Virus record (IMG/VR): IMGVR_UViG_3300031992_000018
Coordinates: 32,001 to 96,000 of that record
Length of the DNA: 64,000 nt
Source: a virus
Taxonomy: Duplodnaviria > Caudoviricetes
Reading direction: 5' to 3' (one strand)
The position numbers were made by a program, and so were the translations under genes. The notes beneath the pieces were generated by a model. It was not told where the DNA came from, ran no database searches, and saw only the letters and a program-made list of their open reading frames with translations. Shown here piece after piece: positions 43,270 to 47,058 of this stretch. Each line of letters begins with the position of its first letter. Position 1 is the stretch's first letter.

Positions 43270-43974
43270 ATGATACATACTGTAGATAACTTTGAACTTT
43301 TTGCTAAGAAGCTTTTTGAGAAGCCTCTTAAAGAAGATGAATTTTACTTTCTTCAGATTCTAGTTCGTGGAAAGGATGGTCATCATGTAAGTGGTAATAA
43401 CAAGAATCGTCTTGTCAAATATTACACTATTACTTCTGGTGAACAGCTTCTTTCTCTTAAAGATGAGATTCTTGCTATCTGTCATGTAGATAATGCAAGA
43501 GCATATATTCATCCTACTAAGAGAAATGCTAAGGAAGTTGCAAATATTGCTGTTGAGCTTGCAGTTCATACTTTTGTATCTCAGAACTGGATTGGTTTTA
43601 AGAGTATGTATTCTACTGCTTGTGGTCAGAGTTTTGTAACTAATGATAAGAAGTTTATCGTTGATCTTGATGATATTCATGAAGGTGATGCAATCCTTGA
43701 TGAAATTAGGAATAAAATTTATACTTATCGTGGTCATGGTGGTGAAAATTCTGATAAGGTATTTATGACTGTTCCAACTAAGAGTGGTGTACATCTTATT
43801 ACCTGGCCATTTGATGTAGGTCAGTTTACAAAGGATTTTCCTGGAATTGATATTCATAAGAACAATCCTACTCTTCTTTATTTTAGATGGGAGACTGAAG
43901 ATGATAAAATTAAAAAGGATAACATAGATAAATATATGATATCTGCTGAATATGGTCGTGCATCAGAATATTAA
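43270..43974 (+). CDS. Putative archaeo-eukaryotic primase (AEP)-fold protein
   Basis: KFIVDLDD (motif I, DxD), PTKSGVHLI (motif II, SGxH), IDIHK (possible motif III). Confidence 0.55.
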   Translation: MIHTVDNFELFAKKLFEKPLKEDEFYFLQILVRGKDGHHVSGNNKNRLVKYYTITSGEQLLSLKDEILAICHVDNARAYIHPTKRNAKEVANIAVELAVHTFVSQNWIGFKSMYSTACGQSFVTNDKKFIVDLDDIHEGDAILDEIRNKIYTYRGHGGENSDKVFMTVPTKSGVHLITWPFDVGQFTKDFPGIDIHKNNPTLLYFRWETEDDKIKKDNIDKYMISAEYGRASEY

Positions 43975-43975
43975 T

Positions 43976-44068
43976 AAAAACAAGGCAACATGCGAACTGC
44001 AGTGGACTGTGTTGAATAATATTAAGTCGTCGATACGAGTTATCGAGTGTAAATAATTGCTTGTTTTT
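43976..44068 (+). ncRNA. Candidate structured RNA, unknown family
   Basis: GC-elevated non-coding island with end-to-end pairing and two internal hairpins, followed by a terminator. Confidence 0.55.
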
Positions 44069-44070
44069 TA

Positions 44071-44107
44071 TTCCAGGAATGAATTCCTGGAATTTTTTTC
44101 TATATTA
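44071..44107 (+). terminator. Terminator fused to class E promoter
   Basis: TTCCAGGAA-TGAA-TTCCTGGAA-T7, with ATGAAT(44079)-N16-TATATT(44101). Confidence 0.8.
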
Positions 44108-44129
44108 ATATTGTAATTTATTAAAATAT

Positions 44130-44256
44130 ATGATTGAAATAATTGCAGTAATATTTGGGTTATTACAAGGTATTACAATTGCTCTTAATAAAAGAAGTAA
44201 TTGGATATATTGAAGGTATTAATTGGATGAGTAATGAAATTTTAAAAAGAATCTAA
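44130..44256 (+). pseudogene. Possible pnuC (nicotinamide riboside-type transporter) remnant
   Basis: MIEIIAVIFGLLQGITIALNKRSNWIY* resembles the first PnuC helix and stops after 27 codons. Confidence 0.4.
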
Positions 44257-44291
44257 TACGGATTATAATTTATTATTCAAGAGATTTTTAT

Positions 44292-44624
44292 ATGAATACA
44301 AGAGCATTATATAAAACTTGGGAAGATTACATGCATGCTAAGTATGGTGATAAAATCAAAGAAGAATGTAAGAATTTTGTCTTCTTTGAAGATGGCTCTA
44401 TGAAGTATGATTTTGATAAATTTAATGATTATTGGGAAGCTATGATTGATGCTGTAAAGAATGGCGAAAATATTGATAAAGTAGTTAATCTTGTTTTTAG
44501 AGAGAAAGTTGATTGGCCTATTGTAAAAGAAAAACTTTTGAAAGAAATTAATATAAGAGAATCAGCTAAGAAAGGTTGGGAAACTAGAGCACTTAAGAAT
44601 TATTTAAATTCAAAGGAAATATGA
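44292..44624 (+). CDS. Hypothetical protein
   Basis: ORF with SAKKGWETR basic motif. Confidence 0.7.
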   Translation: MNTRALYKTWEDYMHAKYGDKIKEECKNFVFFEDGSMKYDFDKFNDYWEAMIDAVKNGENIDKVVNLVFREKVDWPIVKEKLLKEINIRESAKKGWETRALKNYLNSKEI

Positions 44625-45271: not shown

Positions 45272-45398
45272 TATTGGTGGTAATTTATTTCCAATTCCAC
45301 AAAATAATGACAATAATGATAATGATGATACTCCTAATGGCTGTGGATGTTTAATCATTATAATTATACTTTTATTGATATTTCTTTTTATAAAATAG
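45258..45398 (+). CDS. Small membrane protein (46 aa)
   Basis: GCGCL followed by a hydrophobic C-terminus, ends at a terminator. Confidence 0.5.
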   Translation: MMLINIGGNLFPIPQNNDNNDNDDTPNGCGCLIIIIILLLIFLFIK

Positions 45399-45437
45399 AG
45401 GAGATTCTTTGAATTTCCTCAATTTTTTTCTATATTA
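45398..45437 (+). terminator. Terminator fused to class E promoter
   Basis: GAGGAGATTC-TTT-GAATTTCCTC, with TTGAAT(45409)-N16-TATATT(45431). Confidence 0.75.
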
Positions 45438-45461
45438 TAATGTGATTAAAAAATAAACATT

Positions 45462-45629
45462 ATGAATAAAGAAGAATTATCAAAGAAAATCCATGATGCT
45501 TTGATGGAGTATTCATTTAAGATTGCAATGGAAAGTGAAGATGGTAAATTTAGCATGTCTGATATGTGTGAAGCATTCCATAAGGGTACTGAAGTAATTC
45601 TTGAATCATTAAACATTAATCTTGATTAA
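45462..45629 (+). CDS. Hypothetical protein (55 aa)
   Basis: First ORF after the promoter. Confidence 0.6.
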   Translation: MNKEELSKKIHDALMEYSFKIAMESEDGKFSMSDMCEAFHKGTEVILESLNINLD

Positions 45630-45630
45630 T

Positions 45631-47058
45631 ATGACTTTTAAGACTCTTCCATATGATAACTTACTTAAGGAAATTGGCTGTGTTGCTGATGATCTTAAGT
45701 ATGAATGCTATGTAGTTGGTGGTTTTGTTCGTGACCTACTTCTTAATAGAGACAATGATGACATTGATGTTGTTGTTGTTGGTAAGGGAGTAGAGATGGC
45801 TAAGACCTATGTAAAATATCTTCGGGGTTTAGGAAGAAATGTAAAGTATTCTTTTTTTGAAAACTTTGGTACCGCTCAGGTTAAGGTTGATGATCCTGAG
45901 TATGGTGATATTGAAGTTGAGTTTGTTGGCGCAAGAAAGGAATCTTATGAGCGTGGTTCTAGAAAGCCTATTGTTGAAGAAGGTACTCTTCGTGATGACC
46001 AGCTTCGTCGCGACTTTACTATCAATGCAATGGCAATTTGTTTGAATAAGAAGCATTTTGGAAAGCTTGTTGACCCTTTCAATGGAGTTGATGATCTTAA
46101 AAGAGGAATTATTCGTACTCCAGTAAATCCAGATATTACTTTTTCTGATGATCCTCTTCGTCAGCTTCGCGCTGTTCGTTTTGCAGCTAAGCTAAATTTT
46201 GATATTGATAGAAATACTTTTGAAGGAATTCAGAGAAATGCAGATAGGCTTTCTATCATCTCTGAGGAAAGAATCAATGTTGAACTTATGAAAATTCTTG
46301 CTTCTGACTCTCCTTCTAAGGGTATTCATCTTCTTCTTGATACTGGACTTCTTGAGAAGTTTCTTCCTGAAGTAAGTAAATTAAATACTGATGGAAGGAC
46401 TGAGAAGATTACTCATGGGCATAAGAATATCTTTGCTCATACTCTTGAAGTTCTTTCAAATGTAAGTGCAAAGACTTCTAATCCTTGGATTCGTCTTGCT
46501 GCACTTCTTCATGACATTGGTAAGATTCCTACCAGAAAATATATTCCTGGTACTGGTTATACTTTTATGGGACATGAGAATGTTGGAGCAAACATGGTTG
46601 ATGTAATTTTCCGCCGTCTTAAGCTTCCTCTTGATGAGCATCTTACTCTTGTACATAATTTGGTAAAGCTTCATATGCGTCCTCAGTCAATTGCTTCTGA
46701 AGGTGTTACTGATTCTGGCGTACGTCGTCTTGTCTTTGATGCTGATGGACATATTGATGACCTTCTTATTCTTGCTGAAAGTGATATTACTACTGGTAAA
46801 CTTGCAAAGAAAGAGAAGTTTATTGCTCAGTATGAGGAGTTGAAGAAAAGGATTGAAGAGCTTAAGCAAGCTGACTTTGTAAGAACTTTCCAGCCTTGTG
46901 TAAGTGGTAATGATATTATGGAAAGATATGGTCTTTCTCCTTGTAAGAAGGTTGGTGAACTGAAGCAGATTATCAAGGATGCTGTTCTTGATGGTACTGT
47001 AGAGAACACTCCTGAAAAGCTATATGAGATTCTTGATAAAGAAATGAATTATGAATAA
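45631..47058 (+). CDS. cca: CCA-adding tRNA nucleotidyltransferase with HD domain
   Basis: VGGFVRDLLL..D.DID, EFVGARKESY...SRKP, RRDFTINAMA, DDPLR.LRA.RF, LLHDIGK. Confidence 0.92.
   Translation: MTFKTLPYDNLLKEIGCVADDLKYECYVVGGFVRDLLLNRDNDDIDVVVVGKGVEMAKTYVKYLRGLGRNVKYSFFENFGTAQVKVDDPEYGDIEVEFVGARKESYERGSRKPIVEEGTLRDDQLRRDFTINAMAICLNKKHFGKLVDPFNGVDDLKRGIIRTPVNPDITFSDDPLRQLRAVRFAAKLNFDIDRNTFEGIQRNADRLSIISEERINVELMKILASDSPSKGIHLLLDTGLLEKFLPEVSKLNTDGRTEKITHGHKNIFAHTLEVLSNVSAKTSNPWIRLAALLHDIGKIPTRKYIPGTGYTFMGHENVGANMVDVIFRRLKLPLDEHLTLVHNLVKLHMRPQSIASEGVTDSGVRRLVFDADGHIDDLLILAESDITTGKLAKKEKFIAQYEELKKRIEELKQADFVRTFQPCVSGNDIMERYGLSPCKKVGELKQIIKDAVLDGTVENTPEKLYEILDKEMNYE

Follow-up and report, generated by a model that had tools for sequence, protein, structure and literature searches.

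Several known systems combine a protein gene with a neighboring RNA. In retrons (RT-msr/msd), in the pairing of Ro60 with Y RNA and in type III toxin-antitoxin systems, the RNA is conserved together with the gene and its helices show covariation. A comparable layout, in which a nucleotidyltransferase-like gene lies beside a stretch with pairable ends, is found in the phage genome represented by IMG/VR virus record IMGVR_UViG_3300031992_000018. Here, open reading frame (ORF) 43270–43974 encodes a protein resembling archaeo-eukaryotic primases (AEPs), and its stop codon (TAA, 43972–43974) is separated from an intrinsic terminator by a CpG-rich island of 94 nt. The window analyzed comprises bases 32001–96000 (64,000 nt) of this 168-kb record, which is estimated to be 59% complete. 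Positions refer to the window unless prefixed with G000, the phage's own genome record, and L-numbers (L001, L094, etc.) denote loci fetched from relatives. The likeness to the systems named above is confined to the layout, since none of the relatives possesses the island and its folding stability does not exceed that expected by chance. We therefore consider it probable that the locus represents the end of a gene for an AEP-fold enzyme followed by a strain-specific orphan spacer, and not an enzyme with a partner RNA.

Absence of the island from related loci

Database searches with the AEP-like protein yielded 1187 homologs. Six contigs selected by identity, 80 viral loci and 80 metagenome loci were fetched, and about 160 loci of the AEP-like gene form the basis of the linkage comparison; a set of 73 homologs was used for the alignment, the structure model and the Pfam search. 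Scans of viral contigs with the single protein or with the downstream 110-aa protein as query returned nothing, but alignment-based scans retrieved relatives. These derive from rumen and gut metagenomes. The named phages that possess the same protein family, namely the Prevotella Lak megaphages, Cellulophaga phage phi17:2, Tenacibaculum phage pT24, and a crAss-like phage, all infect Bacteroidota.

According to the initial annotation, which was made from the window sequence alone, the AEP-like gene and the island constitute a protein plus non-coding RNA module. However, the island does not follow the gene in any of the approximately 160 loci examined, and in the closest relatives a protein gene begins 1–3 nt after the stop codon. 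The closest relative at the DNA level (L001; 79–84% nucleotide identity) loses homology to the window at 43890 and regains it at 44300. Locus L094, which shares the C-terminal tail of the window protein and is 94.5% identical over 43850–43976, ceases to be homologous at 43976, precisely where the island begins, and a gene of 137 aa starts there 1 nt after the stop codon. The same 137-aa gene follows the AEP-like gene in three further loci (L098, L006, and L007). The next ORF on the same strand abuts or overlaps the stop codon in 60 of 86 loci, and the slot behind the AEP-like gene is hypervariable, being occupied by the 137-aa gene, a 76-aa gene or other small genes in different relatives; in L006, a Tad2-like gene is located two genes downstream. 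Linkage of the RNA to the gene in related phages was the check that the annotation itself had proposed, and the island turns out to be unlinked, because it is missing after the gene in every relative examined. As far as sequence comparison can tell, this is the decisive result against the RNA module.

Searches with the island itself agree with this picture. Neither blastn nor nhmmer found a match to it in the loci of relatives, and a single-sequence covariance model with the annotated structure, run against 744 kb of relatives' loci and the phage's own genome, recovered only the island. No second copy exists in the 168-kb genome, and exact patterns for the two island halves detected no copy in three public collections of viral, metagenome, and genome contigs. 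One 18-mer match in L090 lies in an unrelated context and was discarded as a chance hit. BLAST comparison of the region with phage and plasmid records gave nothing relevant, and in a six-frame tblastn search of 43881–44300 against the genome and its relatives only the C-terminal tail of the AEP-like protein (L008, L009) and the terminator cassette described below were matched. In all of these searches, the island was found as a single copy.

Composition and folding of the island

The window has a GC content of 24.6% and is strongly depleted in CpG (observed/expected ratio 0.22). The annotated contrast between a CpG-rich island and a CpG-poor genome is correct: five CpG in 94 nt is a density reached by only 0.24% of all 94-nt windows. 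Expressed per 100 nt, the island contains 5.3 CpG compared to 0–1.5 in the adjacent genes, and it harbors two of the 60 TCGA sites of the genome. Its GC content is coding-like. The codon-usage score per codon, however, ranges from −0.2 to −1.4 in the six frames of the island, as opposed to +0.54 ± 0.25 for the 3′ ends of real genes.

All pairings that had been proposed can form. The closing stem (43976–43988 with 44057–44068) allows 12 bp with one bulged G, and encloses a GCAG/CTGT hairpin (43999–44010) with a 4-bp stem that includes one G·U pair (−1.7 kcal/mol) as well as a TCGATA/TATCGA hairpin (44030–44046) with a perfect 6-bp stem and a 5-nt loop (−3.6 kcal/mol); the alternative helix CAACAT/GTGTTG is also possible, again with one G·U pair. 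Folding statistics nevertheless place the island within the range expected by chance. For a 106-nt fold, the z-scores were −0.36 on the plus strand and −1.37 on the minus strand. The 93-nt core has a minimum free energy of −18.0, compared to −16.6 ± 2.9 for dinucleotide shuffles (z −0.5), and an equally good fold is reached by 30% of the shuffles and by 22% of native windows of matched GC content; the structure drawn in the annotation reaches only −13.4 kcal/mol. The window contains 188 perfect 9-bp inverted repeats with loops of up to 100 nt, compared to 122 ± 11 in Markov simulations, and because such repeats abound the closing stem is unremarkable. A stem of this kind, built from an A-tract and a T-tract, is expected about every 500 nt and hence is not special.

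Comparison with known RNA families led to the same result. Rfam (release 15) had no match in the window at the gathering score, and with E-values of up to 10, CRISPR-repeat families included, only sub-threshold chance matches appeared. The sole one of these that spans the island is AbsR28, with 11.8 bits (gathering score 50) and E = 5; the others fall on the terminator hairpin or elsewhere. ARAGORN predicted no tRNA and no transfer-messenger RNA (tmRNA) in the island. Thus, the proposed structure is real as sequence, but amounts to no more than chance as structure. The second suggestion of the initial annotation, an independent structured RNA or ribozyme, is likewise not supported, given the lack of an Rfam or tRNA match, the ordinary stability and the absence of the island from all relatives. 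Since the RNA is not a conserved feature, a reading as ribozyme or guide RNA would need support from expression.

The terminator-promoter cassette and a possible origin of the spacer

The separate strong terminator that had been annotated behind the island is real. Its GC-rich hairpin (44070–44093) and T-run, together with the TTTTCTATATT motif, a stretch of about 35 nt and an ATG, make up a cassette that recurs in the genome (Table 1). Hairpin and motif were found together 18 times in G000, with roughly 14 of these matches being clear cassettes, and an ORF of at least 60 aa starts 31–43 nt after the motif in eight of the 18. The distance from the preceding stop codon to the motif is 11–34 nt in 13 of the 18 matches, with the hairpin abutting the stop codon, but 121 nt at the locus studied here. 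Therefore, the island constitutes an addition to an otherwise standard arrangement; apart from the 94-nt spacer that separates it from the preceding stop codon, the region 44070–44127 is an ordinary phage terminator/promoter cassette. Among the copies, the motif is kept and the hairpin stems vary. The paralogous cassette at G000:154112 differs from 44070–44093 by a compensatory G>A/C>T change in the stem, and another copy is located in the window at 45398–45464. In the relative L096, a cassette of this kind is found immediately before the homolog of the gene at 44292.

On this basis, the following account of the locus appears probable to us. The AEP-like gene would close a transcription unit that ends at the terminator, which in turn belongs to the repeated cassette. 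The spacer could be a strain-specific junction left behind when a cassette was replaced or deleted in the hypervariable accessory-gene slot, where relatives carry at least one protein gene directly after the stop codon and this phage none. It may be transcribed passively as part of a 3′ untranslated region (UTR), and its DNA may stem from an outside source or have been scrambled as the replacement took place. Such a foreign or scrambled origin is suggested because the composition is non-native, the island being CpG-rich and devoid of native codon usage in any frame. CpG richness may argue either for a recent or foreign origin or for constraint, and constraint would speak against the account given here.

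Table 1. Positions of the AEP-like gene, its motifs, and downstream features in the window.
Feature	Position	Strand	Basis or remark
Gene of predicted stand-alone AEP-fold protein, 234 aa	43270..43974	+	phrog_14949 family; last gene of its predicted transcription unit
AEP motif I, FIVDLD, residues 129–134	43654..43671	+	Alignment of 73 homologs; on strand 129–134 of the model
AEP motif II, SGVH, residues 172–175 (nucleotide binding)	43783..43794	+	Alignment and model
AEP motif III and next invariant block, IDIHKNN, residues 193–199	43846..43866	+	Alignment and model
Orphan CpG-rich spacer (initially proposed structured RNA)	43975..44069	+	Stop codon to terminator; strain-specific
Intrinsic terminator, 10-bp hairpin (−12.5 kcal/mol) and T-run (seven T)	44070..44100	+	Scan, folding energy
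Recurrent post-terminator motif (TTTTCTATATT...), likely promoter of the next unit	44096..44127	+	Recurrence in G000
Hydrophobic mini-ORF, 27 aa	44130..44213	+	ATG at the canonical spacing of 34 nt from the motif
Next conserved gene, 110 aa, function unknown	44292..44624	+	Synteny with relatives resumes; L001 homology from 44300
CCA-adding enzyme (tRNA nucleotidyltransferase with HD domain)	45622..47058	+	Pfam PolyA_pol (3.6e-25), PolyA_pol_RNAbd, HD

Alternative explanations for the spacer

Some of the observations reported above weigh against a passive junction and would be easier to reconcile with a functional RNA private to this strain and recently acquired, for instance a small RNA derived from the 3′ UTR, an element for stabilization or processing of the mRNA, or an anti-defense decoy. 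The CpG density of the island is 13 times the genome mean and ranks in the top 0.24% of windows; its coding-like GC content is not accompanied by native codon usage in any frame; in relatives, the slot holds accessory or anti-defense genes such as the Tad2-like gene of L006; and gaps rich in CpG do harbor structured RNAs in this genome, one example being the GOLLD-like RNA described below. We nonetheless regard a private RNA as unlikely. The island shows no excess folding stability and no Rfam match at E-values of up to 10, it has no second copy in the viral, metagenome, and genome collections or in the loci of relatives, and it possesses no recognizable promoter of its own, being situated inside the 3′ UTR of the AEP-like gene.

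Alternatively, the island could be the remaining 3′ end of a former protein gene that reached to just before the terminator; a recent deletion would have fused this remnant to the stop codon of the AEP-like gene. Frame 43940–44053 comprises 38 open codons and ends 13 nt ahead of the hairpin, an arrangement also seen for real genes in the other cassettes, and both the coding-like GC content and the presence of genes in this slot in relatives would fit such a remnant. The codon-usage score of this frame (−0.50 per codon), however, is below the 5th percentile of real gene 3′ ends (+0.12), and the CpG density of the island far exceeds that of native genes. Moreover, six-frame tblastn revealed no similarity to genes of the relatives, and a degenerate peptide pattern had no match in viral contigs, which leaves a gene stump with a rather small chance of being correct.

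In our estimation, it is very unlikely that the phage recently acquired the island as a functional RNA, either a decoy or a cofactor resembling tRNA or Y RNA, acting in concert with an RNA-repair set of the phage that consists of the AEP-like nucleotidyltransferase and the CCA-adding enzyme. If this were true, the small AEP family would represent an RNA-acting polymerase and not a DNA primase.

A miniature mobile element inserted between stop codon and terminator has slightly less to recommend it still. The island does bear terminal inverted repeats of 12–13 nt (43976–43988 and 44057–44068), its removal restores the standard arrangement of stop codon and hairpin, and the homology to L094 ends exactly at its first base. 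Yet no other copy was detected in the 168-kb genome, in relatives or in the three collections, no clear target-site duplication is present, and chance alone would be expected to produce such inverted repeats.

Finally, the proposal that the island RNA serves the AEP-like enzyme as cognate template, guide, primer or antitoxin can draw on the adjacency in this single genome and on the frequent proximity of the family to RNA and RNA-repair genes, such as the tmRNA about 310 nt downstream in a human-gut lineage, but it is scarcely credible and already largely refuted by the missing linkage: the gene occurs without the element in the roughly 160 loci examined (from more than 1000 database homologs), a protein gene occupies the position in the closest relatives, and the tmRNA and tRNA of other lineages are unrelated to the island.

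The AEP-like protein

The characterization of the ORF product as AEP-like was supported by both fold and motifs. The motifs of AEPs have been defined as hhhDhD/E (motif I), sxH (motif II), and hD/E (motif III) (PMC5862659), and all three are located on the expected strands of the structure model. Both the DxD and the SGxH signature noted in the annotation are present and invariant in the 73 homologs, specifically the metal-binding acidic pair D132 and D134 of motif I and residues G173 and H175 of motif II. In motif III (I193–D194), D194 is retained in at least 90% of the homologs, and K197 and N198 in the block that follows are invariant. The AlphaFold model computed from the 73 sequences is confident (pLDDT 88.7, pTM 0.83), and the predicted structure combines an N-terminal α/β unit with an RRM-like catalytic module, the two parts expected of an AEP fold.

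The family as such has escaped curated resources. Foldseek found no significant match for the protein in the PDB, and a profile search of PDB sequences was equally negative. Pfam has no match for the protein or any of the 73 homologs, and PF09250 (Prim-Pol), PF16793 (RepB_primase), and PF24387 (AEP-like) had no match anywhere in the genome. PHROGs assigns the protein to phrog_14949, with function unknown there. In a comparison of language-model features, the nearest named clusters were PF24387 "AEP-like" (0.94, 192 shared features) and PF22548 "AEP-TOTE" (0.79). The hidden Markov model of PF24387, however, does not match the gene even at E = 10, and both clusters are mostly bacterial; thus, the phage protein would at best be a separate family of the same superfamily. 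Known AEPs used for comparison were RepB′ of RSF1010 (3h20), the PrimPol of cyanophage S-2L (6zp9), and PriS/PRIM1 (8b9d_O, 1v33, 1zt2). Sequence identity to the matched AEP chains is only 8–14%, and, unlike known AEPs, the phage protein is small (about 200–234 aa) and lacks a helicase, PriCT, zinc-binding or PriL-like partner domain. It is likely to be a divergent and minimal representative of the AEP superfamily that falls into no curated family. We assume a small stand-alone AEP-fold nucleotidyltransferase, whose activity is predicted, from a phage-specific family widespread in Bacteroidota phages.

For the last approximately 27 residues of the protein, close relatives show two versions that are unrelated to each other (window 43882–43971 as opposed to L001, L095, and L100). 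The long version of the tail ends in AEYGRASEY, the short one in CDDFDEFL, and the recombination break between them lies inside the gene at about 43890.

Genomic neighborhood and predicted role of the enzyme

Prim-Pol domains associated with RNA repair have reportedly been described by Burroughs and Aravind in 2016. The family studied here resembles them in that its loci are often found near genes for PNKP, RtcB, RNA ligase, CCA-adding enzyme, Thg1, and Band-7 proteins and near tRNA and tmRNA genes. However, DNA polymerase A and ThyX are frequent neighbors as well, and the likeness concerns gene neighborhood. Within two gene positions of the AEP-like gene, we found DNA polymerase A, ThyX, kinases of the PNKP/AAA_33 type, RNA ligases, RtcB, HAD_SAK_2, Thg1, CCA-adding enzymes, and Band-7 proteins. 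After clustering at 80% identity, PNKP, RtcB, RNA ligase, CCA-adding enzyme, tRNA or tmRNA occurred within 1.5–2.5 kb in 31 of 86 clusters, a tally without background control, and PolA or ThyX was a neighbor in 10 of the 86.

In the phage studied here, the gene for a CCA-adding enzyme, which is a recurrent neighbor of the family, follows the AEP-like gene at a distance of 1.65 kb, and 1.7 kb upstream there is a gene for a NUDIX hydrolase. The CCA-adding enzyme gene also includes one of the window's few CpG-rich stretches (45917–46207). In Cellulophaga phage phi17:2 (L175, gp033–gp031), a tRNA nucleotidyltransferase directly adjoins the AEP-like homolog; it is followed by a gene that was annotated as polymerase on the basis of Pfam PF00644 and then by a ligase. 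In one human-gut lineage, the AEP-like gene is followed after about 310 nt by a phage tmRNA (L016:3399–3804, L017:3399–3661, L024:3406–3829), with a tRNA-Gln about 0.9 kb beyond it and Band-7 genes upstream. These RNAs fill a long gap after the gene, but they are ordinary and unrelated to the island.

This neighborhood suggests, as a prediction, a role in RNA end repair, and a nucleotidyltransferase linked to the repair of RNA or tRNA ends is the function that we tentatively favor over that of a replicative primase, which appears possible but more doubtful. No Toprim primase and no DnaB helicase were found in the 59%-complete record, a result that is uninformative with respect to the whole phage.

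Downstream mini-ORF and other candidate RNAs in the genome

A gene-free stretch of 78 nt follows the 27-aa mini-ORF behind the cassette. The mini-ORF, which gave no Pfam hit, may represent either a micro-protein or the stump of a truncated or lost gene; an interpretation as N-terminal remnant of PnuC was dropped, as it had no support from Pfam.

Outside the window, the genome contains two further stretches of interest. The first, G000:C1:11–429 on the plus strand (locus L091:11–429), matches GOLLD RNA (RF02032) with an E-value of 7.8e-23 and a score of 88.7 bits, which is below the gathering score of 150, and is followed by a tRNA-Thr(tgt) at 918–991. It probably represents a divergent GOLLD-like large RNA. 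The second, G000:C1:22505–23128 (locus L092), is an ORF-free and CpG-rich gap of 624 nt with a terminator-like hairpin at its end. No Rfam family matched it at E ≤ 0.01, and the gap may harbor a large non-coding RNA of an undescribed type.

Implications

The locus illustrates the turnover of accessory slots at gene boundaries in jumbo phages. Furthermore, phrog_14949, a large family of "hypothetical proteins" in Bacteroidota phages that comprises representatives in Lak megaphages, in Cellulophaga and Tenacibaculum phages, and in a crAss-like phage, can likely be annotated as a minimal stand-alone AEP-fold enzyme. Its frequent siting beside tRNA, tmRNA, CCA-enzyme, PNKP, and RNA-ligase genes leads to the hypothesis that this enzyme may act on RNA ends instead of priming DNA synthesis.
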